From the IMG/VR virus record IMGVR_UViG_3300006100_000043: a stretch of DNA of 32,301 bases; one strand, 5' to 3'. The notes under the pieces were generated by a model. That model was not told where the DNA came from, searched no databases, and saw only the letters and a program-made list of their open reading frames with translations. The DNA is from a virus. Below are positions 2,496 to 26,681 of the stretch, in pieces (the first letter of the stretch is position 1; the number at the start of each line of letters is the position of its first letter). The position numbers and the translations under genes were made by a program.

Positions 2496-2497
2496 GA

Positions 2498-8092: not shown

Positions 8093-8093
8093 C

Positions 8094-9756: not shown

Positions 9757-10467
9757 ATGAACTACGACGAAATTGAAATCCAAGCTAAGACTGCTGCCGC
9801 AGATAACGGCTGGTTCAACGGCTCTTCAGAAAGTATCTTTGCTAGATTAGACAGACTGCAAGAGATCCTTGACTCAACACGCACAGCAGCCAGCCACCCC
9901 AACACCAACGAGAGAGACCTCGAGCGTTTTGCCAATATCCTCACAGAGCTTGGCGCCGAGAAGGAAGCCCTAGAGAAGCTCGCATCAGAGTATGTTGACT
10001 TTGACACTGAGCAGTACCTTGACAGTCTCCCTGGCGGAACAATTGCTAAGCAATACCGTGTTAGCAGCGCAGGTGTACTTGACCTCGGTGAAGACGATGG
10101 TAGCCTTTTGTACCGCACAGCTTCTTCGATCAACAGAGAATATGAAGATGCAGACTGGATTAACTTCGTTACTGCTGGTGCTGAAGTCTGGGTAGAAGAC
10201 CAGAACCTTCGTTTGCTTGACAACCAGCTTAACACTCGTGAGGCAGCTGTTTACTACGTTGAACAACGCACAATGCCAATCTTGGATGTAACCAAGCGTG
10301 CAGCCATTATTGACAACTTTGTTGACAATGTAGAAATTTGCCGTAGAGCAAAGAAGGAAGGCAGCAAGTTCCGTGGAATTAAGTCCGCTAACGCTCAAAA
10401 ACTGTCTGCCAACTATGTTAACGAAGCCTTGAACGACTCTTTCGGAGATGGCCTTAACTGGTTGTAA
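9757..10467 (+). CDS. Hypothetical protein (236 aa)
   Basis: ATG preceded by AGGAAAACAGAAAG. The conserved 10-mer AGTAATTAGG sits 20 nt upstream. Confidence 0.7.
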   Translation: MNYDEIEIQAKTAAADNGWFNGSSESIFARLDRLQEILDSTRTAASHPNTNERDLERFANILTELGAEKEALEKLASEYVDFDTEQYLDSLPGGTIAKQYRVSSAGVLDLGEDDGSLLYRTASSINREYEDADWINFVTAGAEVWVEDQNLRLLDNQLNTREAAVYYVEQRTMPILDVTKRAAIIDNFVDNVEICRRAKKEGSKFRGIKSANAQKLSANYVNEALNDSFGDGLNWL

Positions 10468-10468
10468 T

Positions 10469-10978
10469 ATGACAGAGACTTGGCACGGTTTTAGAGTTGT
10501 TGGTGCCGTAGAAGATGACACAACAACAAAACCAGTAGAACAACCACCGCTTATTAAGCAATTGCAAGAATTGCTAGCTGATGCTGCGTTGTTTTATCAT
10601 TCAGTTCACGAATTCCACTGGAATGTTTCCGGATTGGATTTCTACGAATACCACAAACTGTTTGATGAAATTGTAAGCGATGTATACGATAGCATCGATC
10701 CAATTGCAGAGAATATCCGCAAACTTGGTGGTCGTGTTAAGTATAAAATGAGTGAGCTTGTCGATATCGCTAATTTGCAAGAACCTGCAGAAGGTGGCAC
10801 TGAAGCGAAAACCTTGACATCTGAACTTATTAGGCTAAACTCTAAGCTCATTAATACTTTGATGAATACTTTCAATTTGGCGAACAAACTCAACCAACAG
10901 GGTATTGCCAACTTCATTGCCGAACGAATTGACCAGCACCAGAAATGGGAGTGGTTCCTAAGAGCCTCTGTTGAATGA
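10469..10978 (+). CDS. dps: Dps / ferritin-like DNA-protection protein (about 169 aa)
   Basis: LQELLADAALFYHSVHEFHWNVSGLDFYEYHKLFDEIVSDVYDSIDPIAENIRKLGG aligns residue-for-residue with the Dps ferroxidase-centre region (HWN...HxxFDE...AERIRxLGG). The C-terminal WEWFLRASVE resembles Dps FLWFIESNIE. In-frame ATG 10448 is an alternative start. Confidence 0.8.
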   Translation: MTETWHGFRVVGAVEDDTTTKPVEQPPLIKQLQELLADAALFYHSVHEFHWNVSGLDFYEYHKLFDEIVSDVYDSIDPIAENIRKLGGRVKYKMSELVDIANLQEPAEGGTEAKTLTSELIRLNSKLINTLMNTFNLANKLNQQGIANFIAERIDQHQKWEWFLRASVE

Positions 10979-12529: not shown

Positions 12530-13732
12530 ATGGATAAAAATAACGAACGCCAGAGGAAGAACTTTCGCTGTGTCTTTAATCCTTACGTGACTAAAGATAA
12601 CCGCGATGGCGTTATTCGTTCCATCATTTCTCAGTTTGAAGGTTATGAAGCTGAGCCTGAAGTCACACTACATGACGATGGTTTTATCATCACGCTTACC
12701 ACTGGTCCTGAATTATCTCCAACATTAATCAGAGATAAAATTCTGTGGAATCAATTCGTTGACAGCGTAACAGCTTCCGATGCTATCCGCAAGATCCAGA
12801 TCATACGTATCCCTAAGAATTCTGGTTTGATGGATTTTGGTGGTCGTGTGGAAGGACAAGGCAGTATTGGTGGTTTTGGTCCTGAAGTCGATCCTATTGT
12901 TGGCAATACTGGTGTGGATGAGAAACTCAACACGCCATTGAACTACAAGCCTAAGTATCAGATCGATGGAGATCCTAATGATACATTGGGACACCATGCC
13001 AGTGTTAGAAAATACGCTGACCCAACAGATCTTACTTCTCAAGACCAATCTTTTGTACACGGTCTTACTCCAGCTGATTTGACAAGTGATGCCAACAGGG
13101 TTGAAACTGGCCCTCAGGATCCATTGGAAACTGGTAATCACAAATCGTTGCCAAAGGTATTCGCTAGCTTTAAGCGTATTGCAATCGATACAGACGCTGG
13201 AAGTGCTTTTACTTTAAACAAGCCCAATGGGTTTCAAAGCGTTAATGATCCACCCAACCAAGGACCATTGCACCAACGTGCCACTCCAGCAACTGGTATT
13301 GGTGGTGGAGCCCCTATTAGCGGTGCTAGCTGGTATGTAACACAGCCTGGCAATGAGCAAGGAACCGAGCTTGGTGCTGAACGTAACAAGGATTACGATT
13401 TGAGCAGCTCATCAGCACCCCTTGGTGGGATTACTGCTTCGTTGTATGAAGGTCCTGCAGCTGAACAATACGAGAAGTCTATCAAAGACGAATACGGCGC
13501 AGAAACAGCTGAAGACCAAAATAAAGATCAGATCAAAAAGAACATCGTTTACGCATCTTCTGATGGAGACAGTGATACCGATGACGAACAAGGTATTAAA
13601 GCAGAATACGGTTCAACGCTAGATATGCTAGGTGTTGGAGACCACCCAATTGGTGGTGCCGCATATGGTTCTTTCTTTGGACTTAATGAAACATACGATT
13701 ATCAAGGCGATATAGATGAGTACAACCTATAA
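12530..13732 (+). CDS. Hypothetical protein (400 aa), acidic Ser/Asp-rich C-terminus
   Basis: Long ORF; no recognised motifs. Confidence 0.7.
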   Translation: MDKNNERQRKNFRCVFNPYVTKDNRDGVIRSIISQFEGYEAEPEVTLHDDGFIITLTTGPELSPTLIRDKILWNQFVDSVTASDAIRKIQIIRIPKNSGLMDFGGRVEGQGSIGGFGPEVDPIVGNTGVDEKLNTPLNYKPKYQIDGDPNDTLGHHASVRKYADPTDLTSQDQSFVHGLTPADLTSDANRVETGPQDPLETGNHKSLPKVFASFKRIAIDTDAGSAFTLNKPNGFQSVNDPPNQGPLHQRATPATGIGGGAPISGASWYVTQPGNEQGTELGAERNKDYDLSSSSAPLGGITASLYEGPAAEQYEKSIKDEYGAETAEDQNKDQIKKNIVYASSDGDSDTDDEQGIKAEYGSTLDMLGVGDHPIGGAAYGSFFGLNETYDYQGDIDEYNL

Positions 13733-14264
13733 GGTTTACGAAGCAGGTAAAGATCCGTCAAAGTACGTACCAGGAGATTTTATTCTGGTGTCGACCAAGG
13801 GAGTCCTTGCTAAGTTTATCCGTTTTGGTCAATTCATCCGTTATCACGGTAAAATGAAGCCCTTTGCTCACTGGAACCATGCTGCTATGGTTATCAGTGA
13901 GAATGGCGACATCGTTGAAGCTGTTGGTCGCGGTGTTGTAGTTAGCAACATTGGTGAGTACAAGAACGTAGAATATTACTACGTTTCTACTAAGCTTAAC
14001 AAGCAAAGCCGTGACCAAGCGGTAGCTGCTTGTAAGAGTTTCATTAAGGATAAGTATGGTTGGCTAACCATCTTGAGTATTGCTACGGAATTGGCAACTG
14101 GCATCAAGATGCAGTTCACCAATAGCAACACAATGATCTGTAGCGCCGTAGTAGCACAATCCCTATGGGCAGGTGGAGTCGTATTCGACCGCAACCCATA
14201 TCAAATGATGCCTGCTGATTTGGCAGCATCTTTCAACATTCTGACGGAATTGCCAAATACTTGA
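13716..14264 (+). CDS. Permuted papain-fold amidase of the YiiX/YaeF (peptidase C92) type; candidate endolysin/cell-wall hydrolase
   Basis: GDFILVST...HWNHAAMVI...VEAVGRGV...MICSAVVAQSLW...MMPADLAAS follows the YiiX order (GDIIF...SH.G..V..EAVG...YCSEVVW...SPQAVF). His precedes Cys (circular permutation). Confidence 0.7.
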   Translation: MSTTYKVYEAGKDPSKYVPGDFILVSTKGVLAKFIRFGQFIRYHGKMKPFAHWNHAAMVISENGDIVEAVGRGVVVSNIGEYKNVEYYYVSTKLNKQSRDQAVAACKSFIKDKYGWLTILSIATELATGIKMQFTNSNTMICSAVVAQSLWAGGVVFDRNPYQMMPADLAASFNILTELPNT

Positions 14265-14465: not shown

Positions 14466-14819
14466 ATGTCTAACCCATTGAACACAACAACAACTAGAGC
14501 TACAGGTCGTGCTTTTGTTGCTGCTATCGTTGGTGCTTTGCTTGCTTGGGGTGCAACCAAGTGGGGCAATCTTAACACTGGCACATTTGCAGCTTTGACA
14601 CCTGTTGCTTCTGGTCTGTATTACACAGCAGTTACTGCTCTTGAGAAGAAGTATCCTAACCTTGGTTGGTTGCTTGGTACGCTTCCTCAGCCCAAGGCTC
14701 CTACTGTGTTCCCTACACCAGAGCCCACACCTGCTCCAACACCAGCTCCAACTGCCGCAAAGGCTCCTGCTGCCAAGAAGACAGCTGCTGCAAAGAAGGC
14801 TGCTCCTAAGAAGAAGTAG
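14466..14819 (+). CDS. Holin-like two-TM membrane protein with Lys/Ala/Pro-rich histone-H1-like tail (117 aa)
   Basis: Strong RBS AAGGAGAAATAATA-ATG. Two hydrophobic helices (AFVAAIVGALLAWGATKW; FAALTPVASGLYYTAVTAL). C-terminal PTPEPTPAPTPAPTAAKAPAAKKTAAAKKAAPKKK. Confidence 0.55.
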   Translation: MSNPLNTTTTRATGRAFVAAIVGALLAWGATKWGNLNTGTFAALTPVASGLYYTAVTALEKKYPNLGWLLGTLPQPKAPTVFPTPEPTPAPTPAPTAAKAPAAKKTAAAKKAAPKKK

Positions 14820-14826
14820 TTCTTAA

Positions 14827-14899
14827 TCCCTGGTAGCTCAATTGGCAGAGCAACGCACTGTTAATGCGTGGGTTCCTGGTTCGAGTCCAGGCTGGGGAG
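14827..14899 (+). tRNA. tRNA-Asn (anticodon GTT)
   Basis: Manual cloverleaf. Acceptor tccctgg/ctgggga, D-arm gctc-aattggca-gagc, anticodon arm acgca-ctGTTaa-tgcgt, T-arm cctgg-ttcgagt-ccagg, discriminator G. No encoded CCA. Confidence 0.8.
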
Positions 14900-14904
14900 C
14901 TTTA

Positions 14905-14978
14905 GGTCTTGTAGCTCAGTTGGTTAGAGCACTTCCCTGTCACGGAAGGGGTCGTGGGTTCAAGTCCCATCAAGATCG
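14905..14978 (+). tRNA. tRNA-Asp (anticodon GTC), CCA encoded at 14979-14981
   Basis: Acceptor ggtcttg/caagatc, anticodon arm cttcc-ctGTCac-ggaag, T-loop ttcaagt, discriminator G followed by cca. Confidence 0.8.
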
Positions 14979-14982
14979 CCAT

Positions 14983-15053
14983 TGAGGGATGGTGTAAAGG
15001 CAGCACAAAAGACTTTGAATCTTTTAGTCTAGGTTCGATCCCTAGTCCCTCAG
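14983..15053 (+). tRNA. tRNA-Gln (anticodon TTG), CCA encoded at 15054-15056
   Basis: Acceptor tgaggga/tccctca, anticodon arm aaaga-ctTTGaa-tcttt, T-arm ctagg-ttcgatc-cctag, discriminator G then cca. 71 nt. Confidence 0.75.
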
Positions 15054-15057
15054 CCAT

Positions 15058-15130
15058 GGGACTGTAGCTCAGTGGTAAGAGCGGAAAGCTTATATCTTTC
15101 TGGCCGTAGGTTCAATTCCTACCAGTCCTA
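15058..15130 (+). tRNA. tRNA-Ile (anticodon TAT, reads AUA), CCA encoded at 15131-15133
   Basis: Acceptor gggactg/cagtcct (G1-U72), D-arm gctc-agtggtaa-gagc, anticodon arm gaaag-ctTATat-ctttc, T-arm gtagg-ttcaatt-cctac, discriminator A then cca. Confidence 0.7.
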
Positions 15131-15221
15131 CCATTTAAAACATGCTCTGAGTTATAGCAGTAATTAGGCAATATATGCCTATATTCAGCGTTCCTATTGG
15201 GACAATATAAGGAGTAACACG

Positions 15222-16643
15222 ATGACCTCGATGTTCGATTTTGACGATTCAGTAAACATTGCTTTTGATGCAAAGATTGCTGGTAAGAATCTCGTAACCG
15301 CTAAGCACGAATTGCTTACAAAGACCGGTGAGTTCCTTTTCTTGGCCCACAGCGATCACGAGCTTGCTAGCCGCATGCAAATGGTAGAGAAGGACATCGA
15401 GAAGGTTGCCCACCGTCGTCTTGCTTCAGTTAGCGACTCTAAGGCTAAGCTTGTCCGCGCTGTATACGATGAATGGCAGATTCGTCACGCTCGTTGTGAA
15501 ATGTGCAAGCTTGCATGGGGTTTGAACCCCATCTCTGACCTTGGTCAAGCGATTACTGACATTGGTGGCGCTGCTGGTAAGGCAACCAGATCCGTTGTTA
15601 ACGACCTGTCTGGCGCTGCTGGCGCTGTTGGTCGTGGTGTACGTGATCTTGGCCACGATGCTGCAGGACTTGGTAGAAACCTTTCTGGCGATGCTAAGAC
15701 TGTTGCTCGTGGTGTTGGTGAAGCTGCCGGTACCGCTGTTAATGGTCTCGAGAACGTTGGTAAGGGTGCAATTGACATTGCAAAGAAGGCTCCTGGCGTT
15801 CTCGACAATGTTGCCCGTGGTGTTGGCAATGCAATTGGTCAAGGTGCTCACGACACCGCAGGTGCTTTTGATACTGCTAGACACGATACTGCAGGTGCTG
15901 CTGACGCAGCAGGCCGTGGTATCTCACGTGGATTCGACGTAGCTAGACACGACACCGCAGGTGCTTTTGATACTGCTAGACACGATACTGCAGGTGCTGC
16001 TGACGCAGCAGGCAGAGCTATTGGTCAAGGTGCTAACGATGTTGCACGTGGATTTGATGTAGTGCGTCACGATACTGCAGGTGCTGCTGACGCAGCAGGC
16101 CGTGGTATTAGCAATGATGCTAAGTCCGTTGCTCGTGGTTTGGGCCAGGGTGCTGGTGCTGCTGTAAATGCCGGTGAAAGTTTCATGGGCGATGTAGCTC
16201 GTGGATTCGACGTAGCTAGACACGATACTGCAGGTGCTGCTGACGCAGCAGGCAGAGCTATTGGTCAAGGTGCTAGAGATGTTGCAGGCGTTGCTAAGAC
16301 TGTCGGTACCGATGCTGTTAAGGGTGTAGCTGCTCCGTTCGCCGGGGCTGTTAGCGCCGTTGGATCAATGGGAAGCCAATTTATTCAGGGCTTTGAGAGC
16401 AAGGAAGACAACGACAACAAGAGAGGACCTAGCACATCAACTGGTGGTCCTGGCGGATCAGGTGCACCTGCTGCTGGATCTGCAGGTACTATGCGATCGA
16501 CTCCTGCTTCTCAAGCGATTAACAGTGCAAAAGCTAAGTTGACACCTGACACTGATCACGACAATGACACAGGCGATGCAAACGAAGCCAACAAGACAAT
16601 TGGCGACAAGAGAACATCGTACGATAGAAATTTTCCCTGGTAA
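15222..16643 (+). CDS. Gly/Ala-rich tandem-repeat protein (473 aa), probably abundant virion-associated
   Basis: Strong RBS TAAGGAGTAACACG-ATG. The central 250 aa are degenerate 11-residue repeats with at least six copies of HDTAGA(A/F)D(A/T)A(G/R) and four of RGFDV(A/V)R. C-terminal Gly/Ser/Asp-rich tail. Confidence 0.8.
   Translation: MTSMFDFDDSVNIAFDAKIAGKNLVTAKHELLTKTGEFLFLAHSDHELASRMQMVEKDIEKVAHRRLASVSDSKAKLVRAVYDEWQIRHARCEMCKLAWGLNPISDLGQAITDIGGAAGKATRSVVNDLSGAAGAVGRGVRDLGHDAAGLGRNLSGDAKTVARGVGEAAGTAVNGLENVGKGAIDIAKKAPGVLDNVARGVGNAIGQGAHDTAGAFDTARHDTAGAADAAGRGISRGFDVARHDTAGAFDTARHDTAGAADAAGRAIGQGANDVARGFDVVRHDTAGAADAAGRGISNDAKSVARGLGQGAGAAVNAGESFMGDVARGFDVARHDTAGAADAAGRAIGQGARDVAGVAKTVGTDAVKGVAAPFAGAVSAVGSMGSQFIQGFESKEDNDNKRGPSTSTGGPGGSGAPAAGSAGTMRSTPASQAINSAKAKLTPDTDHDNDTGDANEANKTIGDKRTSYDRNFPW
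15849..16274 (+). repeat. Intragenic tandem DNA repeats (66-bp perfect duplicate with 99-bp period, plus two further 33-35-bp copies)
   Basis: 15849-15914 is identical to 15948-16013. Core gacacgatactgcaggtgctgctgacgcagcaggc recurs at ~15880, ~15979, ~16068 and ~16219. gcagagctattggtcaaggtgct occurs at 16011-16034 and 16251-16274. Confidence 0.85.
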
Positions 16644-16668
16644 CCACAAACCCAGGGTTTAGTGGTAC
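16644..16668 (+). terminator. Weak stem-loop after repeat-protein stop (ccctgg...ccaggg / aaacc-cag-ggttt) with only a 3-T tail
   Basis: Inverted repeats directly after TAA 16641-16643; poor T-run, so intrinsic-terminator status is doubtful. Confidence 0.2.
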
Positions 16669-16699
16669 AACTGCGAAAATTAAAAATGCTTTCAATCTA

Positions 16700-17392
16700 T
16701 TGAGAAATGCTTCTGGCACAACGCCAGCGCCTGGTTCTCTTGATTACGTCGATTCATTGTTACACATCACTTCACCTGCAGCAACTACTCAGACTAAAAC
16801 TCCAGCAGCAGCTGGATCGGATGAGGGTGAACTTAGCCCTTTGAAAAAAGAAGAGCTTCAGAAGGTAATCAACCAAGACCGTAGAATGCACATCAATGTT
16901 CCGCAGAGTGCAATTGATGAAGTTAACGCACCAGCAGATACCCCTCAAGAAGATCAGACTGAAAAAGCAGTTAAGTCTCGTCAAAAAGGAGAAGCAGAGA
17001 CTGCCAGGGCCAATGAATCTAAGGGTCCTATTAGACAGCCTACCACTCCAACGCCTGGTACAAAAACACCGACTAACGTGGCACCAGTTGCACCAGTTTC
17101 CAATAAGCCAGTAAAGCCTGTCGTTGCACCAATTCCAGCAGGCGTGGTAAAGACACCGATCGTTCCAGCTCAAACATCTCCTGTTAAGCCTGTTGTGCCG
17201 CAAGGCACACCAACAGGTTCTCCTGGTAAAACCGGTCCTGGCAAGGATCTCGGTTTTAAGTCTGTGCCAGCAACAACATCTCCTACTGTAAACATGAATC
17301 CTAAGCCCAAGGCTACTGCCCCAACTACATCAGGTACTGGAAGTAGTGCGGAGCAGGCCATTCAAAATGGCGCCGCGTTCCTAGGTGTATAA
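16700..17392 (+). CDS. Pro/Thr/Val-rich low-complexity protein (230 aa); start codon uncertain (TTG)
   Basis: Long open frame with no in-frame ATG until codon 62; the track start is TTG 16700. Motifs TPTPGTKTPT, PVKPVVAPIPAGVVKTPIVPAQTSPVKPVVP. Confidence 0.5.
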   Translation: MRNASGTTPAPGSLDYVDSLLHITSPAATTQTKTPAAAGSDEGELSPLKKEELQKVINQDRRMHINVPQSAIDEVNAPADTPQEDQTEKAVKSRQKGEAETARANESKGPIRQPTTPTPGTKTPTNVAPVAPVSNKPVKPVVAPIPAGVVKTPIVPAQTSPVKPVVPQGTPTGSPGKTGPGKDLGFKSVPATTSPTVNMNPKPKATAPTTSGTGSSAEQAIQNGAAFLGV

Positions 17393-17402
17393 TAAATAGA
17401 TT

Positions 17403-20400
17403 ATGTACAATTCAAAGAACAACCAAAAAGTTGCAGCAGAGCAAGATACATATGCATTTGCCAAATCATTAGACGATGCTGCTCATGGTGGTGATCTCGG
17501 TAAAAGAATTGGTGTTACCAATATTTCCACGCAAGCTGGCTTGTGGGACCGTTCCAAGAAGCTGTGGAGCGAAGGTGTCTACCCGAAAGCATCGGAACTA
17601 ACACCAGGTACATTTGCCACACCATTCGCTGGCCTTCAAGAACAATTGTCTAGTATGCCTGCGGTTACAAAAGGTGGCAACCAAGGTGAACGTGTAATTG
17701 GTGGTTTTAAAAACGCTGATACTGGCCACTCATATGCAATGAGAATGTTCTACCAACCAGATGGTGACAACCACCGTCTTAAGGTATCTGTGCATTTGCC
17801 AGAAAGCGGAGTAAACGCTCACGGCAATCATATCTATGACGTTGAATCAGGTAAGTGGCACCTTCCCGGCGAATCTCACGATAGCCCAGAAGCAATTTCT
17901 TCTTACAACCCCATGGAAGTAATGCAAAGCGCACCAGAAGACTTTGCTAATGCAACTCAATGGACTAAATTCAACACGCCATCTCACTCAGATGGTTTTT
18001 GCAAATCTTGCAAGCGTTTCCCAAGATTTCTTAGCCGCATGCTTAAGATTATGCGACCAGAGAATTGTACAGCTTGTGGAATGCGTGGTGGTGCTCCTGA
18101 GTACCCATGGGAACCTGGTACGTTCGTTGATTTAAACTCAGAAAATGGAACTGGTGTTCAGACCAGTGCTTTTTCTCAATACATGGGGCCAATCTGTCGT
18201 AACAAAAAATGCATTAGTTACAATAAGTCTATCGCTTCCGAGCCAGCGTTTGTAACTCCTGATTACCAGGTAGTTTACCCCGGTGCCGTCGGTGCACAAG
18301 GCAAGAAAATTTACCAGTTAACACCAGCCAAAGTGTCTGAGTTCAGAGATCTTAGAGCAGAGAGAGAATCTAAGAGAACAGAAATTTCTCGGCGGATTAA
18401 CGATGCCAGACTCCTTGGTGACTTGGGCGAAAATGGTGATTACCACGCAGCAAGAGATGAACAGTCTTCAAATGAATACATGATTTCATCATTAGCAGAA
18501 ATGCTTGCAAACCATGAAATCGTTGATAGCTACAAGCCTGATCACAAGCACCTAGAAGAACCAGGTCAGACGACTGCACCATCAAGAATGGTATATGATA
18601 ATCCCATTATCAAGGAAGCCGTAGAGCGTGGCGGTGCAAAAGCAATTAGCTTGCCAGCTGCAAGTTTAGAATGCGATCATGAAGATTGCCCTGACACAGT
18701 TCTTGATCAAACAACTGGAAGAATTAATACAAGTAGACCAATTAGAACTCATGTCGATAAGTTCCCAAAGCTCGGTATTTTGCCATGCCAACACTGTCGT
18801 CGCGGCGCTGCAAGTGGTGTCAAAACTGTAACCACCGAAGATGGATACACAAGATGTGATCCTTCAGAGTACGGTGCCAACACATGCGCACCATTGCCGC
18901 AAAGAATTGCTGATGATCGTGCAGATGATTACTTTAGCTGGTTTGATCCAGACCCCGTAGACAAATACCCTGTAATTAAAAAAGATGCTGGAACGGGTAT
19001 GGGAGTTCTTTTTCAACGTACTGAAGACGAGCAGGATCCAAACAAGCCCAATGGTACATACCCTGGTACTCAAAGAATTTTCATGAAAAACCCATCCAGT
19101 GGTAGAGATCCAGTCGGCAACGGCTATGAGAGCCCCAGAGATTACTTCAAGTTTGGTAAGAAGTCCCCATGGACACGTTTCGGCATGTTCGGACGCAAAA
19201 TCATGGATCGACTGCCCTTGGTTGATCATGAAAGTGACGAAGCAAAGGAATACGCTACAAAGTACAATTTGGCTGATCAGGTAAGAACAGAGATGGGTAG
19301 TGCCAATCTTAGTGAAGACGATATCAACCGTAATGCCAACATTGAAGCAGCCAGCAAGATCAATGGAAAAATTTTAAGTGAACATCGCTCCAAGGCGCAG
19401 GGTTCATTGGCTGAAGAACGCATTACACCTGAAGACTTCGAAGAACTCTCATCAACACCGGTAATTGGTAGCTTAGATAGTATATCAGACACTGATCCTG
19501 TGCTTACGACTTCTATTAATCCTTTTAGATTGCCAGAAGATATTGATGAACGCATAAAGCCACAAACAGCAGTCGATGAACTGGGTCGCGAAGTTGCTCC
19601 TGGTGAGGATCTGAGCCAGGAAGACTATGACCTTGCACGTGGTTACGAGGCACGAAGCATCCCTACGGTATCAAGTATTGTTTCGGATCTTGCTCAGGGA
19701 ACAGGTACATCGCACGATCCAATTCGCTTTAGAGAAAAGCGCGGTTCTCGAAGAATTGTTGCTAATGCATCTGGTTTTGTTTATCCAAAACAAGTTCCTA
19801 TGAGTCTCGATAGTGGTGTTGATTGGGATGATCTTTACGGTGCTCGTCCTGATCTTGTCATACCTGATACACCAGATCAGGAAGAAGTTTTCCAAACTCA
19901 GAAAGCAGTAACACCTGGAGAATCATTGGCAATTGCTCAGAATGAAGTCACAGACTGTCCTGAATGCAAAACCATGTCGATCCTTAACAATGTGCGAGGA
20001 ATGGTGCCACAATCAGCGGTATACGTATCACCGCACTGCCCAACGTCACAATGCCCAGGTGGAGAAGAATGCCACAGTGATATGACCAACAGAAGCCCTC
20101 ACTGTCACGGCTGCAAGGATCCAAAAATTTGTGTTGGCAGAAAGAGAAAAGTTTGGCGCAATGTAGATGCAGTCTGCTCAACCTGTGATAATAACGGGTT
20201 TGTAAGCCCTTCAAAGGTTGCTGACAGGGTTATTCCTGCAATTGGAGAAGGAGCACAGCGTAGAGATATTGGTCACGAAGATATCGTTGGAAATCCAACC
20301 AATGCAATGGATGTGTTTAATGATAGAATCGGTGAATCAGCTCTCGGTGATCTCGAAAGCCATGGTATTGAAACCACTGGTCTTAGCGTTGATGCGATCA

Positions 20401-20972
20401 ACCGTGCTAGAGAAATTGCTAACTGGCAGCGTCAAAAGGACAGAGAACAAGGTCTTATCGTCCATGATTTTGAACTCGAAAACGAAGCTTCAGATCTAAA
20501 GAAGCTTGGGCCTGCGGCATACTTGCAAGCAGTGGAAAATGGCGTCTATGATGCTGATCAACCACTTATTGCTAGTCTAGAACAAGACGTACAAGATATG
20601 GTAACCGAACCACCCCGTGAGGGATTGACAAATCTGCAGTTTGATTCACCAGCTGCTCTTGAACGCGTTAGAAGATTGCGTGAAGATGCACCAAGAGAGA
20701 AGCTTGTAAAGCGTGATGAAAAAGACGATTCTCCATATGTCAGCACAACAGAAGTTAATAATATCCCTGTGGCGCGTATAGAACATGATGAGAAATGCAC
20801 GAAATGTAACCGCGGAATTATTATACCTGAGGTAGTTGGTCCAGAAGAAATGAGAAGAATCAACAACGTAATTGGTCAGGCTACTGCTCAGATTAGAAGA
20901 ACAGTCCCAGCAGAACAGCAGCCTGCGGCAATCAACCAGATGATAGCTGACCAGATGAAGTGTAGAGGATAG
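17403..20972 (+). CDS. Very large hypothetical protein (1189 aa) with multiple Cys-knuckle clusters
   Basis: Uninterrupted 3.57-kb ORF. Cys clusters include CKSCKRF...CTACGMRGG, CDHEDC, CQHCRRG, CPECKT, CPTSQCPGGEECH...HCHGCKDPKIC...CSTCDNNG and CTKCNRG. No Walker A or polymerase motifs found. Confidence 0.8.
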   Translation: MYNSKNNQKVAAEQDTYAFAKSLDDAAHGGDLGKRIGVTNISTQAGLWDRSKKLWSEGVYPKASELTPGTFATPFAGLQEQLSSMPAVTKGGNQGERVIGGFKNADTGHSYAMRMFYQPDGDNHRLKVSVHLPESGVNAHGNHIYDVESGKWHLPGESHDSPEAISSYNPMEVMQSAPEDFANATQWTKFNTPSHSDGFCKSCKRFPRFLSRMLKIMRPENCTACGMRGGAPEYPWEPGTFVDLNSENGTGVQTSAFSQYMGPICRNKKCISYNKSIASEPAFVTPDYQVVYPGAVGAQGKKIYQLTPAKVSEFRDLRAERESKRTEISRRINDARLLGDLGENGDYHAARDEQSSNEYMISSLAEMLANHEIVDSYKPDHKHLEEPGQTTAPSRMVYDNPIIKEAVERGGAKAISLPAASLECDHEDCPDTVLDQTTGRINTSRPIRTHVDKFPKLGILPCQHCRRGAASGVKTVTTEDGYTRCDPSEYGANTCAPLPQRIADDRADDYFSWFDPDPVDKYPVIKKDAGTGMGVLFQRTEDEQDPNKPNGTYPGTQRIFMKNPSSGRDPVGNGYESPRDYFKFGKKSPWTRFGMFGRKIMDRLPLVDHESDEAKEYATKYNLADQVRTEMGSANLSEDDINRNANIEAASKINGKILSEHRSKAQGSLAEERITPEDFEELSSTPVIGSLDSISDTDPVLTTSINPFRLPEDIDERIKPQTAVDELGREVAPGEDLSQEDYDLARGYEARSIPTVSSIVSDLAQGTGTSHDPIRFREKRGSRRIVANASGFVYPKQVPMSLDSGVDWDDLYGARPDLVIPDTPDQEEVFQTQKAVTPGESLAIAQNEVTDCPECKTMSILNNVRGMVPQSAVYVSPHCPTSQCPGGEECHSDMTNRSPHCHGCKDPKICVGRKRKVWRNVDAVCSTCDNNGFVSPSKVADRVIPAIGEGAQRRDIGHEDIVGNPTNAMDVFNDRIGESALGDLESHGIETTGLSVDAINRAREIANWQRQKDREQGLIVHDFELENEASDLKKLGPAAYLQAVENGVYDADQPLIASLEQDVQDMVTEPPREGLTNLQFDSPAALERVRRLREDAPREKLVKRDEKDDSPYVSTTEVNNIPVARIEHDEKCTKCNRGIIIPEVVGPEEMRRINNVIGQATAQIRRTVPAEQQPAAINQMIADQMKCRG

Positions 20973-20973
20973 C

Positions 20974-21729
20974 ATGGCGGGTAAGAACGTTATTTTTAGA
21001 ATTGGCATCTCTCAGAACCCTTGCGAAAGAGCAATCGATCGTGCCGAGCTGTCAGACGAAGCATACTTGCGCAGACACGGTGTAAGCAAGGCGGCTGACA
21101 ACGTATGCGATGGATTGGATCACACTGATCCTAATCGACAGGAAATTTTCCTAAGAGACCGATTGGATGCTGCCATGTTGACTGACCCTCGAGCAGTTGA
21201 CACTAGACAGCACAATCCTCAAGCAGAAATTGTCAATATCCTCGCAGGTAAATCACCCGTCCTCAGCTGCGCAAATCACGCACAGTCATACAAGGACAAT
21301 GGGAACAAGGTTACTTTGATTACTCAGTTTTTCCGTCCAAGATTAAACCCAGGTGAATCGCCATCACTACAACGTTTGTTCGTTAAGCGTTATAACTACA
21401 GAAGACAGCGTGCAGAAGATATTGCAAAGCGCGAACGCGAATTCGATGCTCAAAACAATGCTGCAGAAGCTGCCAACCCGATCAATTCAACACCAAGTAA
21501 TTGGTCTTCCGATAAGTTCACCCCAGTGTGGACAAACAATACAGAACTCCCAGAAGAGACACCAGAAGAAACTCCAACCACTGATTACGGCATTGCAAAT
21601 ATTGTAAACCAGTTCCAGGCTGCTCTCTACGGATCAGAGATGGTAGATGGTCCAACCGACACCAATGCCAGTAGCCATGTAGCGGCTCCAAGCACGGGAA
21701 CACCACCACAACCACCACAGGTATTCTAA
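20974..21729 (+). CDS. Hypothetical protein (251 aa)
   Basis: ATG 1 nt after the upstream TAG; C-terminal Pro-rich PPQPPQ. Confidence 0.7.
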   Translation: MAGKNVIFRIGISQNPCERAIDRAELSDEAYLRRHGVSKAADNVCDGLDHTDPNRQEIFLRDRLDAAMLTDPRAVDTRQHNPQAEIVNILAGKSPVLSCANHAQSYKDNGNKVTLITQFFRPRLNPGESPSLQRLFVKRYNYRRQRAEDIAKREREFDAQNNAAEAANPINSTPSNWSSDKFTPVWTNNTELPEETPEETPTTDYGIANIVNQFQAALYGSEMVDGPTDTNASSHVAAPSTGTPPQPPQVF

Positions 21730-21730
21730 C

Positions 21731-24472
21731 ATGCGTACATTCAGATTCGTTAAAGATGCAGAAAGCAAGAAAAAGAATAGCGGCGGCAAAAAGAAGAAGA
21801 CTGAGCCAGTAGCTATTGACTGGGGTAGCCTTGGTGTACCAGAAAGCGGCGGCTCCGATTGGCACGTCGACGCAGAACAACAGGAAGCCATCGAGCAACA
21901 CCGTGTAGGCATTGAAGAATACAAGGCACGTCGTCGTCAATTCCTTGAAAGAAGAAGACAGACTCGTCAAGCATATGGTATTCTGCACGGAGATCCACGA
22001 GCACTGTTGAAGTGGATGGCAGAAGGCGGTGTTGGCAGTATGCCAGACGAAGCCGCTGCTTCTATTTCTCCTTATCACAGATCAATGCCGCAGTTCCGCG
22101 AAAGAAGAGACAGTTTGGGTAGGCTCAAGATCGAGCGCGTAAAAGAACTTCTGGAGAGTCCTGGATCCGGCTACACACAACACGTTATTCCAGTTGAATC
22201 ATATGCGCACAATGAACATTGGAAGCGCATTGCTCCAAAGGGTATGAAGGTATTCATTAAGAACGATAAGTTGCCGAGTTCAGGCATTAAAGTGCGTTCA
22301 TTGGAATCAAGCCCCATTCTTGAAGCACGACGTTTAGCAGATATGAAGAAAGCAGTTACGCAGCTTCGCCAAGAAACTGGTGGGTATGAAGTTATCGACT
22401 CATTAAATCCCAACCACCCTCTCAACATCTTTGAGGCTGAGGGTCCTGAAGCAATGTTCGCAAGAATTTTTACTGATCGCCATCAGTTCGCTAGACCAAC
22501 ATCTGAGAAAGTAATTGAGAGCGCAGTCGGTGAATCTGGAGAGCCGCAAGAAGTTAAGGTAGACCCTCTTTCTTTGACTAGTATTTGTACTTGTGGTTCT
22601 GCAGAAGATCGACACGTAACACCAGAAGAAGCGACAGAGCATCATGCTTTGACAGGTGAACACCTTGAGATTCACCCATTTTCACCACAGTACATCATGG
22701 AAAGAGACGGAACACCAACGCCTGGCAGAGTGTTCCGTGCTGGTAATTCTATGCTATTGCGGGCTAAGACAACTCCAAAGCGTGGTGACAACGCTCTTGA
22801 AGTCCCTGCGACTGAGTGGAAGCGTATGGACGATGGCATGGGTTATCGTCTTATGCCGCTCGTTAAATTGGGTGAAACAGCTGAGCGTATTCGACGCATC
22901 TTAATTAAGGGTACAGGTCGTGATAAAGACGGTAGAGAAGTCATGCCCTTTATTAAGCCTGATTCTGACAATTGGACCACATGTAAGGGTTCTGAGTTAA
23001 CAGGTCCTTGCTATGGAGGAAAGCTTAAGCCACGTCGTAGTACCAGCGCAATTCCCTGTGACTGCTGTGAGCCCGATGTTGTTAACAGAGATCCTGAAAC
23101 TGGTAATCCAATATCGGTAGGTCTCGGAAACGGTAGAATCCGTATCCTGGATGATGCTCACAAGCCTTTGTGCCCAACTTGCAATGGACAAGGATTCAAG
23201 CTTAAGGGCAGCAAGTCAGAATCTGAAAAGATTGATTGCGAAACATGCGCTGGCAAAGGGACAGACCCAGCAGCAGATAGTAGTGTTGGAATCCCTTGCA
23301 CGAATTGTGGCACATCGAACGGTGCAATCCTTACGACCGATGATAACCGTTGCCCAATCTGCAAAGGAACTGGTAAGGGAATTGAGAAGGTAAAGCCAAG
23401 AGCGCAGCAGCAGGAAGTTTTCCTAAGACAGGATAGCGTTGTCGAAGGTAACCCCGTGGTGTTGGAAGAATTCTCTGCTAAGGGTCATGGGAATTCAGGA
23501 GTAGATGCGTGGAAAGCGCACGCTCATCCGCAGTGCACACGTTGTGGCGGAGATGATGAATATCAGACTGACTCGGGTCTTCCTTGCAATTGCAGAATAG
23601 CGTCTTTCGACGACAAGAAATCTTTGGTTGCGCCTAGTAACATGAGATTCGTTACACCAGAAGGTGTCAGCGTGCCGAATGGGTTGTTCCAGTTCGCGAT
23701 GACCAAAGCATATCCAGAAGAAGGTACGAACCCTCACAGATTCGTCAATGACTTTGAAACCATTGACCCATCCACCGATCTACCATATGACATTGAATTG
23801 CCATCTGACGATCCTGATCGTGAAACCGAAAACGTTGTTCGATACCAGAATTCCAGTGGCGGACGAATCGATGCTAGAAACTACTTGGGACACTATGAAA
23901 ATGGTATCAACATCCCAGAATCTGCTATGAAATGGTTGCAAGAGAGAAGCGCACAGCACCGTTCAAGTAGAAACGCAAAATTTTGCGCAGCAAATGCTGA
24001 GCTCGAGGATATCTATTCGTTGCTTACTAAGCATATCGCAGAATATCCTATCAACATACCTGGTCTAAAGGTCGAGAAGCCAAAGGCTCAAACGTTGGGT
24101 AACGGCAGTATAAGTGGTCCTTCTTTGCACAAGAGTGTGCAAGAAGCAATTCCTCAGATTGCTCAGTCTCTGCAAAGCGCGGGAGTTAACCCAGAAAGCG
24201 TTGAAATGGCACCGGTATTAGAAGCAGCTTCTAACCTACAATTTGCACGCGATGCTGGTCACCCAGAGGATGAACACTGGGATAACTATAATCAAGCTTT
24301 GAGTCGTGCTGTTGGAGGAATTTTCCAGAACCAGAGACAAGATGTTCCAGAAGGAAGTTACTTGACCCCTAGCAAGATTCGTTCTATGCTAAAGGGACTG
24401 CCGCAACCACTCGATACTCAGCCGGATGCACAATCACAGATTCCAGAGCAGACAGCAGATACCAATGCCTGA
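21731..24472 (+). CDS. Large hypothetical protein (913 aa) containing a DnaJ-type CR zinc-finger domain (CxxCxGxG x4)
   Basis: CPTCNGQG, CETCAGKG, CTNCGTSNG and CPICKGTGKG lie within 70 aa (nt 23171-23380). Lys-rich N-terminus KKKNSGGKKKKT. Additional Cys cluster TCKGSELTGPCYGG...CDCCEPD. Confidence 0.8.
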   Translation: MRTFRFVKDAESKKKNSGGKKKKTEPVAIDWGSLGVPESGGSDWHVDAEQQEAIEQHRVGIEEYKARRRQFLERRRQTRQAYGILHGDPRALLKWMAEGGVGSMPDEAAASISPYHRSMPQFRERRDSLGRLKIERVKELLESPGSGYTQHVIPVESYAHNEHWKRIAPKGMKVFIKNDKLPSSGIKVRSLESSPILEARRLADMKKAVTQLRQETGGYEVIDSLNPNHPLNIFEAEGPEAMFARIFTDRHQFARPTSEKVIESAVGESGEPQEVKVDPLSLTSICTCGSAEDRHVTPEEATEHHALTGEHLEIHPFSPQYIMERDGTPTPGRVFRAGNSMLLRAKTTPKRGDNALEVPATEWKRMDDGMGYRLMPLVKLGETAERIRRILIKGTGRDKDGREVMPFIKPDSDNWTTCKGSELTGPCYGGKLKPRRSTSAIPCDCCEPDVVNRDPETGNPISVGLGNGRIRILDDAHKPLCPTCNGQGFKLKGSKSESEKIDCETCAGKGTDPAADSSVGIPCTNCGTSNGAILTTDDNRCPICKGTGKGIEKVKPRAQQQEVFLRQDSVVEGNPVVLEEFSAKGHGNSGVDAWKAHAHPQCTRCGGDDEYQTDSGLPCNCRIASFDDKKSLVAPSNMRFVTPEGVSVPNGLFQFAMTKAYPEEGTNPHRFVNDFETIDPSTDLPYDIELPSDDPDRETENVVRYQNSSGGRIDARNYLGHYENGINIPESAMKWLQERSAQHRSSRNAKFCAANAELEDIYSLLTKHIAEYPINIPGLKVEKPKAQTLGNGSISGPSLHKSVQEAIPQIAQSLQSAGVNPESVEMAPVLEAASNLQFARDAGHPEDEHWDNYNQALSRAVGGIFQNQRQDVPEGSYLTPSKIRSMLKGLPQPLDTQPDAQSQIPEQTADTNA

Positions 24473-26681
24473 TAAAAAGTTTAACTCAAAGTATTCCAAC
24501 AACGATAACGAAATCTTCGATTTTGACGTTGAATCTATCAATGGAATGGGTGCTAGCCCATTACAAAGTGGCATTAACATTTATGAAGCACCAGAAAGCC
24601 TAGTAGGAACTGAAGAGTACACGCCGGACAATCTGAGCTTTGAAGGAGAACAGCAGGCCGCACAGCGCGATGTCAACAGAAGATACCCGGGTATGAACAT
24701 ATTTGGACCTGGTGTTGAAACTATTTCTGCTTATCCGCTTACAGAAAGACGACTTCACTTTACGCCTGATCCAGAACACCCAGAGGGTGGTTGGGTTGAA
24801 CGCAGACGCCATTCACCAAGAGAAGTAGCTGAACACTTTAAAGCAATGGCAAGACAGATTAGAATGAATCGTTTGCACAGACCTGTTCAAGAATCAGGTA
24901 GAAAAGCGCTGGCCGATCACGCAACGCAGAACATTGTAAACCGTCGTGTTATCAAAGCGAACCTTATTCACATGGCGAAGACATTGAGAGAATCTGGTGT
25001 TAGCACCAGAAGTCAAACTGGCTTTGGTTGTGGCTATTGCTCTGGTGGAACAGACCCTAGATTCAAAACTCTTCCGGACCACCAGAAGCATCTGCAAGTT
25101 TATTGCCCAGTATGTCACAACAAAGGCCACACGGTAGATCACCCACAGATGGAATCGTTCCTTACTGACATCGAGAACTCGTCTGAGGTTGAGAACTATA
25201 ATAAAGACTTCCATGCAAGAGTGTGCGCGCCTGCACAATGTTCTCGTCAATGCAGACTGAAAGGTCTGATCGATCAATATGTTCGATTCCCTCACTGGGA
25301 ACGATCGACTGAACCACTTACAAGAGAGCAGACTCACGGTTCATACAGCAAGTCTAAAGATACTTGGATCGACAACCTTTTGAGAATGAGCGTTGTCAAG
25401 GACCAATTCAAACCACTTGATAAAACGATCGAAATGCTTGGCGGACCTGTCCGTGAAGATTTTGGTAAATACGCTTTTGGCCACTTCATGAACTATGATA
25501 CGGTAAACCCAGATGCCAATGTTCTTGAACGTCCTAACCCCGACGAAATCAATGACAATGAGAGAGTGTTCAGCCCCAGTGGTGGTGGACGAGACAAGCA
25601 GATGTTCTTTATCAGCCTTGGTAAAGATGAAAATGGCAACCACGACATTCTTTACAAAGCACGTCCTATGGCCAACATCCGCGAAGAACGCAGACAGCGC
25701 AGAGTTGGCAAGATGGGTAAGTTCATCCGTCTTCGTGGTGCTAGAGATTTGATGAACTCTGTTGAAGAGCGCGACATTGGTAAGAGAGCCGTACGTGATC
25801 AGGTCTCTAATGCTTTTGATCGCATTCTACCGTTTAGAGGTGAGCAGTCACCACTTGTAAGTGGCGCTTCTGCCAACGATGGCAAACAACAAGATTACTA
25901 TGGTGTTCTCCGCGGTGTATCGCCAGACTACCTTGCTATGACCGATGATCTCGGTGCGTCTGGTCTATGTTACTCTGGTTCAGTAAAGCAAAGAGAGAAT
26001 AAGAACAAAATCCGAGGCTGGTTTACAGCTGTCGGTAAGGGTATCCGTGGTAAGCGAGACGGATTCTCTCCAAAAGCCACAACATCCGTCGACGTTAGAA
26101 ACCGTATCAACCATGGTTTTAGTCGTGAAGAGCTACGTAGTGCTTACCAAACCAGCAATGGTGAAGTCCAGGGTGCTATTGAACGCTTGGCGAACGATGC
26201 TCTTGCAGACCTTGGCGTAAGAAGAGAGAGCTTCGGTAGCGAAGAATCTTACCAATCAGCACTCGAAGATCATGACATTATTCATGGTTTGCGTAAAGCA
26301 GGTGCTCCTATCGGTCAGCAGTCTTTGCCACAATCTAACCAATGGGTTAACTACATGCAGAGCCCTGGAGCAGAAAGATCTCTTGCTACGCCTAGCTCGG
26401 TATACAACAGCCAATTGGGACAAGAAGAGCCAAAGCTTGATATATCTGGACCAGATACCAAGGTACCGATGGCCGACATGCCACCAGAAGTCAATCAAAT
26501 GCTCGCCACTCAAGATGGCGTCAATGACTTCCTTGACATGATCAGAGCACAAGCTGGACCGAGTTCAGTTGATACACCAGAAAAGCAAAGAGCTGCTATT
26601 GAAGGAATCCGACAAAGGAACGGAATTCACGGTGGTTTCGAAGCACTCGGTATTCCATACGAAGACCCAAGCAATTACTAA
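24465..26681 (+). CDS. Large hypothetical protein (738 aa) with CxxC...CxxC zinc ribbon
   Basis: Preferred start ATG 24465 (MPDKKFNSKY...) in an ATGCCTGA overlap with the upstream stop; in-frame ATG 24426 is also possible. Motif FGCGYCSGG...CPVCHNKGH. Confidence 0.75.
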   Translation: MPDKKFNSKYSNNDNEIFDFDVESINGMGASPLQSGINIYEAPESLVGTEEYTPDNLSFEGEQQAAQRDVNRRYPGMNIFGPGVETISAYPLTERRLHFTPDPEHPEGGWVERRRHSPREVAEHFKAMARQIRMNRLHRPVQESGRKALADHATQNIVNRRVIKANLIHMAKTLRESGVSTRSQTGFGCGYCSGGTDPRFKTLPDHQKHLQVYCPVCHNKGHTVDHPQMESFLTDIENSSEVENYNKDFHARVCAPAQCSRQCRLKGLIDQYVRFPHWERSTEPLTREQTHGSYSKSKDTWIDNLLRMSVVKDQFKPLDKTIEMLGGPVREDFGKYAFGHFMNYDTVNPDANVLERPNPDEINDNERVFSPSGGGRDKQMFFISLGKDENGNHDILYKARPMANIREERRQRRVGKMGKFIRLRGARDLMNSVEERDIGKRAVRDQVSNAFDRILPFRGEQSPLVSGASANDGKQQDYYGVLRGVSPDYLAMTDDLGASGLCYSGSVKQRENKNKIRGWFTAVGKGIRGKRDGFSPKATTSVDVRNRINHGFSREELRSAYQTSNGEVQGAIERLANDALADLGVRRESFGSEESYQSALEDHDIIHGLRKAGAPIGQQSLPQSNQWVNYMQSPGAERSLATPSSVYNSQLGQEEPKLDISGPDTKVPMADMPPEVNQMLATQDGVNDFLDMIRAQAGPSSVDTPEKQRAAIEGIRQRNGIHGGFEALGIPYEDPSNY

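Follow-up and report, generated by a model that had tools for sequence, protein, structure and literature searches.

A modular protein of an uncultured freshwater phage, with a constant N-terminal domain, a length-variable Gly/Ala-rich repeat array and a probable second reading frame

Overview

The viral record IMGVR_UViG_3300006100_000043 of IMG/VR, a stretch of 32,301 nucleotides which we call the window, carries at 15222-16643 a gene for a Gly/Ala-rich protein of 473 residues. We interpret the product, with a probability of roughly 0.6, as a modular phage protein in which a constant N-terminal anchor is joined to repeats of variable length, and whose 3' end is probably read in two frames. 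The repeat array grows and shrinks by unequal recombination between near-identical units of 33-99 bp, always in frame. Under this interpretation, a fraction of ribosomes would slip by -1 on the heptamer A_AAU_UUU at 16628-16634, where the Phe tRNA in the A site could re-pair without mismatch, and the Asn tRNA in the P site with no more than a wobble mismatch. Slipped ribosomes would escape a stop two codons on, and add 252 residues from what is annotated as the next open reading frame (ORF). The outcome would be a major isoform of 473 aa and a minor isoform of 723 aa, sharing the anchor and the repeat stalk, and the comparisons below suggest that both isoforms are probably made.

15222..16643, + strand: 0-frame ORF (short isoform), ATG start, 473 aa
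15222..15509, + strand: conserved helical N-terminal domain, aa 1-96, from homologue alignment and AlphaFold2
15534..16346, + strand: Gly/Ala-rich repeat region, about aa 105-375, from composition and autocorrelation; predicted helical

The constant N-terminal domain

Residues 1-96 constitute the constant helical N-terminal domain (hereafter N-domain) of a small family in uncultured freshwater phages. The homologue search, which covered 5.8 billion proteins, returned 75 homologues of the 473-aa protein, all metagenomic, and across 27 members the N-domain is 65-86% identical while their C-termini are unrelated. These C-terminal parts comprise Gly/Ala repeats, Pro/Thr-rich low-complexity sequence, zinc ribbons, or globular parts of about 600 aa, and in some loci the whole protein is the bare domain of about 100 aa. 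An exhaustive profile search, covering 1.84 billion representatives, matched the N-domain in only 93 proteins, with the domain starting at residue 1 in every case. A 4799-aa match (P0125) proved spurious, being a PAS-repeat histidine kinase.

Residues H29, H43, H89, C92 and C95 are invariant in close members. A zinc-binding anti-sigma (ZAS) domain was considered and rejected, given a spacing of H-x2-C-x2-C, not H-x3-C-x2-C, and the loss of the Cys pair in remote members. AlphaFold2 models the N-domain as three to four helices (pLDDT 61), and Foldseek searches of BFVD and PDB with this model returned nothing at E <= 0.001. The N-domain alone yielded only a chance-level Pfam match at E <= 0.1 (MmeI_TRD, E 0.026), and a sequence profile search of PDB gave chance-level matches only. 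The entire 473-aa protein has no Pfam match at E <= 0.01 and no PHROG match; tblastn and megablast searches of 50,697 phage genomes with this protein and 20 kb of the window were likewise negative, and no description of the N-domain family was found in the literature. The gene family is without a cultured or annotated member.

The Gly/Ala-rich repeat array

The repeats that follow the N-domain are genuine, recent and variable in copy number, though of a common type. Residues 97-375 comprise 24% Ala, 19% Gly and 10% Asp, and the exact repeats within this region are as follows:

15849..15914, + strand: exact 66-bp repeat, copy 1 (HDTAGAFDTAR-HDTAGAADAAG)
15948..16013, + strand: exact 66-bp repeat, copy 2
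16068..16100, + strand: third exact copy of the 33-bp core
16221..16253, + strand: fourth exact copy of the 33-bp core

An earlier note, made from the letters of the window, had drawn attention to a perfect 66-bp duplication and to a core recurring four times. We verified the identity of 15849-15914 and 15948-16013, for which 66 nt is the maximal exact match with zero differences, and located exact 33-bp copies of the core, CACGATACTGCAGGTGCTGCTGACGCAGCAGGC, at 15882, 15981, 16068 and 16221. The last of these is embedded in a mosaic unit, its flanks matching 15927-15952 and 16007-16035. All exact direct repeats of at least 25 nt in the 32.3-kb window lie within 15849-16275, which excludes chance. 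Tandem Repeats Finder reported periods of 33 and 87 nt, and a repeat search resolved a four-copy family of 98 nt; older, degenerate families (D2-D4) are also present at 60-78% identity. In the protein, HDTAGA occurs six times and RGFDV three times, and the 11-residue periodicity that had been proposed is borne out by autocorrelation peaks at 11, 22, 33 and 44 residues, with further peaks at 29, 40 and 51. The accompanying proposal of an amphipathic helical repeat protein is weakly supported. AlphaFold2 extends long helices through residues 122-392 ahead of a disordered tail, at low confidence (mean pLDDT 47), and hand inspection revealed no clear amphipathic face.

The duplication was also said to be recent, and this is supported both by the absence of any difference between the 66-nt copies and by alignment: the ARHD unit, of which the window has four copies, occurs just once (FDRARHDVAGAADAVG) in the nearest relatives that bear repeats. 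Comparison of orthologues likewise upheld the expectation that such repeats generate length variants. Twelve near-identical orthologues of a sister clade, from lake metagenomes, span 311-428 aa and differ by whole in-frame blocks of -91, +22, +4, +3 and about +20 aa, which start and finish inside repeats. These alignments confirm that the length of the array varies by recombination among the repeats. The four copies in the window are spaced at 99, 87 and 153 nt, and as every unit and natural indel is a multiple of three, copy number alters length, not expression, without frame-switching; the suggestion of a phase-variable contingency locus was accordingly rejected.

The same FDRARHDVAGAxDAVG repeats also occur in protein P0075 (551 aa), encoded at 2063-3718 of locus L135 on a contig with a WhiB gene. 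Given that P0075 lacks the N-domain, and differs from the window protein in its C-terminal part, the repeat cassette also moves between unrelated genes.

The candidate frameshift site

The elements that might govern a second reading frame lie at the 3' end of the gene:

16628..16634, + strand: slippery heptamer A_AAT_TTT, in phase, codons Asn470-Phe471, read from the sequence
16641..16643, + strand: 0-frame stop TAA, exactly two codons past the heptamer; same spacing in all four shift-type lineages
16634..17392, + strand: -1-frame extension, 252 codons, stop 17390-17392; joined to aa 1-471 it gives 723 aa
16640..16668, + strand: predicted hairpin, starting 5 nt past the heptamer, with one bulge in a stem of about 12 bp, -11.1 kcal/mol, from folding
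16670..16708, + strand: tail-helix motif TAKIKNAFNLLR in the -1 frame, starting upstream of TTG 16700 and running across it

The gene ends Y-D-R-N-F-P-W-stop, and the heptamer is the sole in-phase occurrence of A_AAT_TTT within it. The -1 frame opens at 16628, immediately after a TAG at 16625-16627, and the junction predicted for the 723-aa isoform runs from YDRNF into SLVTTNPGF (junction peptide SYDRNFSLVTTNPGF). The first possible start in this frame, TTG 16700, has no Shine-Dalgarno (SD) sequence and, at +1.7 kcal/mol, is the worst of all starts tested. Residues 63-142 of the extension are 71% identical to the in-frame continuation of an orthologue in a related locus (L004). The motif TAKIKNAFNLLR is the only match in the six frames of the window to the tail-motif pattern of the family, a pattern defined post hoc, and a BLAST search with this segment was not significant. 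Comparison of the extension with Pfam and PHROGs returned nothing meaningful.

The sequence AAAUUUU is the ORF1a/1b slip site of roniviruses. Our literature search on this heptamer found only eukaryotic RNA viruses, in papers on frameshift contexts of shrimp roniviruses and umbraviruses. In Escherichia coli, the heptamer class H_HH.U_UU.Y, to which A_AAU_UUU belongs, ranks with the most efficient motifs for -1 slippage (PMC4066793).

The window encodes its own tRNA-Asn(GTT) at 14827-14900, about 320 nt upstream of the gene, and the proposed slip site would hold Asn (AAU) in the P site. In some retroviruses, -1 frameshifting at AAU/AAC is influenced by how tRNA-Asn is modified. The proximity of the two in the window may be a coincidence.

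Several observations weigh against our interpretation, and most of them concern the site in the window itself. A BLAST search of all loci with the first 69 residues of the -1 extension gave nothing significant, so that its first 62 residues are unmatched, the hairpin is no better than those of shuffled sequences (z -0.33 and -1.47), and the window lacks an SD-like element that two other lineages have 11 nt ahead of the heptamer. A moderate SD (GAGGG, -6.1 kcal/mol) precedes an internal TTG at 16841, and part of the downstream ORF could therefore be made independently. A conserved peptide, D-T/R-N-F, is encoded at the heptamer as well, and conservation of these nucleotides is on its own no proof of recoding. 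At the level of the protein, confidence in the structure models is low (pLDDT 61 and 47), and the fold searches gave no significant match. Two further points concern the possible role of the N-domain: the zinc ribbons in most C-termini of the family fit a cytoplasmic role at least as well as one at the surface, and phrog_2922, the remote relative introduced below, carries no known function.

Recurrence of the design in related loci

The case for two-frame reading is a comparative one. An in-phase heptamer with a stop two codons on is found in 16 of 77 distinct loci, which fall into four lineages (the window, the L002 clade, L040/L042 and L053), and the heptamer, its phase and the spacing of the stop are identical throughout. 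The junction reads GAT ACA AAT TTT ACC GTA TAG in the L002 clade (junction peptide KDTNFYRIALLAPANPGG) and GAT ACA AAT TTT ATC GGT TAA in the L053 clade, while L040/L042 have the nucleotides of the L002 clade directly after the 96-aa domain, followed by a -1 ORF of 739 codons. In the four lineages, the -1 frame opens 0-15 nt before the heptamer and runs for 112-739 codons, and its first ATG, GTG or TTG lies 72-606 nt downstream; for the relatives of the window, this start-less stretch extends over 324-606 nt (108-202 codons). Alleles of the L002 clade differ by many indels in the start-less stretch, yet none of them closes the -1 frame, and all return to a common downstream sequence. The variability of codon positions in this region (32/32/27) is uninformative, because the alleles differ by cassette swaps. 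Among the loci scanned, a long -1 continuation past the stop was seen only in the presence of the heptamer, or of an ordinary start near the frame opening. Each of the four lineages has a predicted hairpin that begins 4-7 nt past the heptamer, that of L002 being strong (-19.9 kcal/mol, z -2.4 to -4.0), and L002 is also among the two lineages with the SD-like element 11 nt upstream.

These comparisons also bear on the most conventional alternative, whereby two ordinary, separate genes abut, the downstream one starting at TTG 16700, TTG 16841 or ATG 16886, and the heptamer is simply a pair of Asn-Phe codons with no recoding. We regard this as unlikely, if far from negligible. It agrees with the ORF list, which has 16700-17392 as an ORF of its own, with the SD-like GAGGG ahead of TTG 16841, with the insignificant hairpin of the window, and with the retention of the D-x-N-F peptide even where no shift is needed. 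It accounts poorly for the -1 frames of the relatives, which stay open for 108-202 codons before any start despite many indels, and for L040, in which the 0-frame product is a bare domain of 102 aa and the 739-codon -1 ORF is start-less for 372 nt. Nor does it fit the -1 frame of the window, which opens exactly at the heptamer, the SD of TTG 16700, the poorest tested, or the conservation shared with the L004 orthologue, which begins upstream of TTG 16841.

An artefact is very improbable. It would require either that the 66-bp duplication was mis-assembled, or that the change of frame near 16630 reflects an indel error in the A3T4 run. The window appears to be an assembled sequence, without a match in the phage genome collection searched, the relatives found are all metagenomic, and short-read assemblers are known to mis-handle repeats of 66-99 bp. 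The repeat block is nevertheless in frame and mosaic, similar in-frame copy-number variants recur in at least 12 independent assemblies of the sister clade, and the frame change with a stop two codons past the heptamer is found in the 16 loci and four lineages noted above, which derive from many samples.

We therefore retain the two-frame reading as probable, and consider that the loci share a conserved, apparently undescribed candidate -1 frameshift site at a module boundary. Such a site would be conserved over diverged lineages of abundant freshwater phages, outside the context of tail assembly chaperones, and between swappable modules. If frameshifting does occur, up to about 2 kb of each genome is wrongly called at present, either as non-coding sequence or as start-less ORFs; as it stands, gene callers leave the start-less -1 stretches empty, or assign spurious minus-strand ORFs to them.

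The heptamer also occurs where no shift would be needed. In L004, it is read through in frame into sequence homologous to the -1 ORF of the window, and comparable D-(T/I)-N-F sites are present in L060, L054, L108 and L039, and as second sites in the L002 clade. These read-through sites keep the heptamer, and their -1 frame stops after 0-1 codons (TAY TAA or TAA). The pattern hints that each module boundary is a branch point with two outcomes, and could equally come from ordinary codon usage acting on a conserved peptide, N-F-(T/I)-K. The junction sequences GATACAAATTTTAC and GATACAAATTTTAT are 14-mers, a length at which many chance matches are expected in metagenomes.

A more ambitious reading would unite these features, with D-T-N-F/A_AAT_TTT as a branch point, an isoform ladder and a recombination joint within a frameshift-coupled, polymorphic effector system. 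At every such site one frame ends within 0-2 codons (frame 0 at shift-type sites, frame -1 at read-through sites) and the other continues, so that one mRNA could yield nested isoforms, and the conserved 20-nt junction would double as the joint at which cassettes recombine. Variable modules would be loaded into the virion by the N-terminal handle and delivered to the host, with the neighbouring large proteins co-delivered, and a GreA-like domain in one of them (see below) could bind the channel of RNA polymerase. We consider this joint reading improbable as a whole.

Cassette exchange and the hypervariable island

The gene straddles the edge of a region in which related phages differ strongly:

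16326..16394, + strand: conserved hydrophobic Gly/Ala/Ser segment VAAPFAGAVSAVGSMGSQFIQGF, which closes the repeat region, from alignment with relatives
16548..16586, + strand: acidic DxDxDxD motif DTDHDNDTGDANE, which recurs before each module end in relatives
15510..26681, + strand: hypervariable island of about 11.5 kb, with genes of 1189, 251, 913 and 751 aa, from comparison with L004, L056, L002 and L054

The segment VAAPFAGAVSAVGSMGSQFIQGF aligns with AAPFAGAAAAAGSLISQFTKGV and GAISGAGSLISQFTQGF of relatives. A transmembrane reading of 16326-16394 was rejected, as mean Kyte-Doolittle hydropathy is only about 1.1 by hand calculation. The motif DTDHDNDTGDANE resembles DxDxDG loops, and may by analogy be a putative calcium-binding site.

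Against the four loci compared, the left flank of the island is 67-92% identical and the N-domain 83-88%, whereas the remainder of the gene at 15222-16643 is absent or about 42% identical. Genes of the island are 28-39% identical in full-length matches, and 48-49% in two matches that are cut by the end of a locus. To the right of the island, identity to the relatives returns to 46-50% for a 139-aa gene and 70-72% for a 203-aa gene. The N-domain is thus the last conserved element on the left, with the island boundary exactly at its end. In the closest backbone relatives (L004, L056 and L060), the Gly/Ala cassette is absent and the N-domain is joined directly to SNDTNFTKSAGDEGELS, a continuation homologous to the next ORF of the window. 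The Gly/Ala region thus behaves as an exchangeable cassette, and on the evidence of these alignments all sequence after residue 96 is replaceable. The edge of the island separates well-conserved genes from genes that evolve several-fold faster, and edges of this kind are typical of phage-host conflict.

The large Cys-rich proteins of the island probably act on the host. One of them, the 1189-aa protein (17403-20972), contains at residues 315-373 a genuine GreA_GreB_N domain, which scores 52.4 bits (cut-off 24.5) and has the tip motif GDLxENxxYHAA; the domain is recorded in the equivalents of L002, L003, L053 and L136, and is not recorded for L004 and L054. Domains of the GreA type bind the secondary channel of RNA polymerase. 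The match suggests that the 1189-aa protein may be a phage factor that targets host RNA polymerase.

A further alternative is that the gene encodes a G/GT-type tail assembly chaperone and precedes the gene of a tape measure protein, the classic pair of phage genes with a -1 frameshift, in which case tail length would be governed by the repeats. The proposed -1 frameshift close to where a small helical domain ends, a 0-frame product of about 100 aa in L040, and the 1189-aa gene that comes next would all suit such an arrangement. It is, however, the least probable of the explanations we weighed. No tail tube or sheath gene lies upstream, where the neighbours are tRNAs and enzymes, and no PHROG tail matches were obtained. 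The extensions are unrelated between lineages and reach 739 codons, whereas T domains are conserved. The putative tape measure, moreover, is Cys-rich, carries GreA_GreB_N, and is only about 31% identical between close relatives.

Remote homology and possible role of the N-domain

The two best matches of the N-domain in BFVD, neither of them significant, are large proteins of Mycobacterium and Rhodococcus phages, and led to the N-termini of phrog_2922. The N-termini of BananaFence gp87, Phabba gp243, RedWattleHog gp8 and Skog gp150 were aligned; all four belong to phrog_2922, a large protein encoded just before the portal gene. With hhalign, the family alignment broadened by remote members matched these N-termini at 97.4% probability (E 1.2e-11, 93 columns), and the narrow family alignment at 79.5% probability only; a direct PHROG HMM scan gave no phrog_2922 match for either the window protein or the N-domain. 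Judged by this profile comparison, the N-domain family is remotely homologous to the N-terminus of phrog_2922 proteins from Mycobacterium and Gordonia myophages.

Genomic position is shared as well, as the N-domain gene and the phrog_2922 gene both lie upstream of a gene of about 120 aa and a homologous portal gene. In Mycobacterium phages, the phrog_2922 gene also follows a tRNA cluster, as in the window, and in Gordonia phage RedWattleHog the homologue has the terminase gene on one side and the portal gene on the other. The window has about 12.7 kb of additional genes between the N-domain gene and the portal gene. The phrog_2922 profile is split in RedWattleHog (L138, 4708-9214), with the N-terminal part in gp8, and the C-terminal zinc-ribbon part in gp9. 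By this profile comparison, the split shows fission or fusion of the pre-portal protein among actinophages, and it fits the N-domain gene and the large genes that follow it forming one functional unit.

Within our interpretation, we favour a docking role for the N-domain, which would serve as a handle linking the variable C-terminal modules to a partner that is conserved. This partner might most plausibly be a component of the capsid or portal vertex, with the helical array as an adjustable spacer; we advance this assignment tentatively, and hold the virion-anchored version of the handle to be possible but doubtful. Hints of a location in the virion or at the cell wall include the Pro/Thr-rich linkers, the DxDxDG-like loops, a PG_binding_1 match in one family member (54.6 bits), the lack of an N-terminal signal peptide (read from the sequence), and the homologous genes of cultured phages that adjoin the portal gene. 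No virion proteome for cluster C was found in the literature.

The protein might alternatively be a non-virion, early protein, whose N-domain would bind a conserved intracellular target, of the host or of the phage itself, and tether variable zinc-ribbon modules for host takeover. The Pfam content of the C-terminal partners, which is mostly zinc ribbons, points this way, as do the genuine GreA-type domain of the adjacent 1189-aa protein, and the strong SD and separate intergenic region of the gene. The peptidoglycan-binding domains of one member argue to the contrary, as does the position of the homologues in cultured phages, next to the portal gene, and in RedWattleHog between terminase and portal. 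Pro/Thr-rich linkers and DxDxDG-like motifs may likewise be more typical of extracytoplasmic proteins. We hold a purely intracellular version of the handle to be about as likely as the virion-anchored one.

Genomic setting

Further features lie directly upstream of the gene:

15209..15214, + strand: Shine-Dalgarno AAGGAG, 7 nt ahead of ATG 15222, read from the sequence
14827..15133, + strand: four tRNA genes (Asn-GTT, Asp-GTC, Gln-TTG, Ile-TAT), directly upstream of the gene

The claim that this gene has the strongest SD in the window is correct by a narrow margin, as the duplex of AAGGAG with the anti-SD (-8.8 kcal/mol) ranks first among 25 gene starts, ahead of that at 14466 (-8.5 kcal/mol). 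No sigma-70 promoter was found in a scan of 14700-17600. Every long ORF of the window is on the + strand, and G+C content is 46%. An Rfam scan detected the four tRNAs and nothing else; the last of these tightly packed genes, tRNA-Ile (15058-15133), has the anticodon TAT, which reads AUA.

The portal gene (29397-31754) matches phrog_2833, the neighbour family of phrog_2922, at 9e-167, and its product is 40% identical to portals of Mycobacterium cluster C myophages. It is all that ties the window directly to cultured phages, being the sole match when all window proteins were compared by tblastn with the BananaFence region, and the relatives come from lake metagenomes. Together with the WhiB gene in the locus that carries the same ARHD-type repeat, these data indicate that the window is part of an uncultured freshwater phage whose portal is actinophage-like.

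Among neighbouring genes, 14466-14819 encodes a small protein with a hydrophobic N-terminal half and a histone H1-like, Pro/Ala/Lys-rich tail (AAKKTAAAKKAAPKKK), and has the second-best SD. The product of 13716-14264, which is 66-90% identical in relatives, resembles permuted papain-like amidases of the YiiX/C92 type (phrog_1128, 5.6e-17; 21.7 bits in Pfam, below cut-off), and may be a cell-wall amidase. A ferritin/Dps-like protein (10448-10978; Pfam Ferritin 2e-18, phrog_3636 'DNA binding protein') is kept in all relatives. Two long + strand ORFs in the ORF list, 7079-8092 and 7542-8987, overlap by about 550 nt; their counterparts in L004 do not overlap, and the second ORF thus probably starts near 8100. 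Where the window has its tRNA cluster, L002 (3377-9676), L053 (2849-9127) and L054 (3887-9482) have a seven-to-eight-gene cassette of the sugar-nucleotide type, including a zinc alcohol dehydrogenase, an E1/transketolase-like enzyme, a PfkB kinase, an epimerase, a cytidylyltransferase and a cupin. The cassette has the appearance of an auxiliary metabolic module that serves a surface glycan.

Comparison with known systems

Phages are known to extend C-termini by -1 frameshifting in gene 10A/10B of T7 and in G/GT of lambda. The window shares with these systems an X_XXY_YYZ heptamer near the 3' end of a gene, a 0-frame stop soon after, and a predicted minor, longer isoform that would share the whole N-terminal part. 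It differs in the heptamer and the gene family, and in a genomic position that corresponds neither to the capsid nor to the tail chaperone. The extension, moreover, is hypervariable rather than a conserved domain, and largely of low complexity in the window, L002 and L053, and a site of the same type is read through in frame in sister lineages.

By analogy only, the architecture may be likened to that of the PE_PGRS proteins of mycobacteria, which also join a conserved helical N-terminal domain of about 100 aa to polymorphic Gly/Ala repeats and variable C-termini. The window protein is nonetheless a phage product, without a PE domain match and without conservation of YxxxD/E, and its 11-residue period with Asp, His and Arg contrasts with the GGA/GGN repeats of PE_PGRS. 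An 11-residue period is likewise found in group 3 late embryogenesis abundant (LEA) proteins, apolipoproteins and alpha-synuclein, and the array is predicted to be helical. Compared with these hendecad proteins, the window array is dominated by Ala and Gly, has an invariant His-Asp, and shows no clear amphipathic face by hand inspection; the window protein gave no Pfam match to LEA_4, apolipoprotein or any other repeat family.

Fusions of MuF or SPP1 gp7, and the internal proteins of T4 with their capsid-targeting sequence, are polymorphic, capsid-borne proteins. As an analogy, they too may be compared with the window protein in having a constant N-terminal module, a swappable C-terminal payload and a fast-evolving locus near the portal, although no similarity of sequence or fold to them was found.

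A further parallel is with phrog_2922 itself, from Mycobacterium cluster C, Myrnavirus and Gordonia myophages, whose proteins share with that of the window some 95 homologous N-terminal residues and a pre-portal position. In both, low-complexity acidic or Pro/Ala stretches are followed by Cys motifs. The cluster C protein differs in being a single polypeptide of 1237 aa, with no Gly/Ala repeats. As phrog_2922 proteins are encoded by more than 200 cultured Mycobacterium and Gordonia phages, they provide an experimentally accessible counterpart of the N-domain family.

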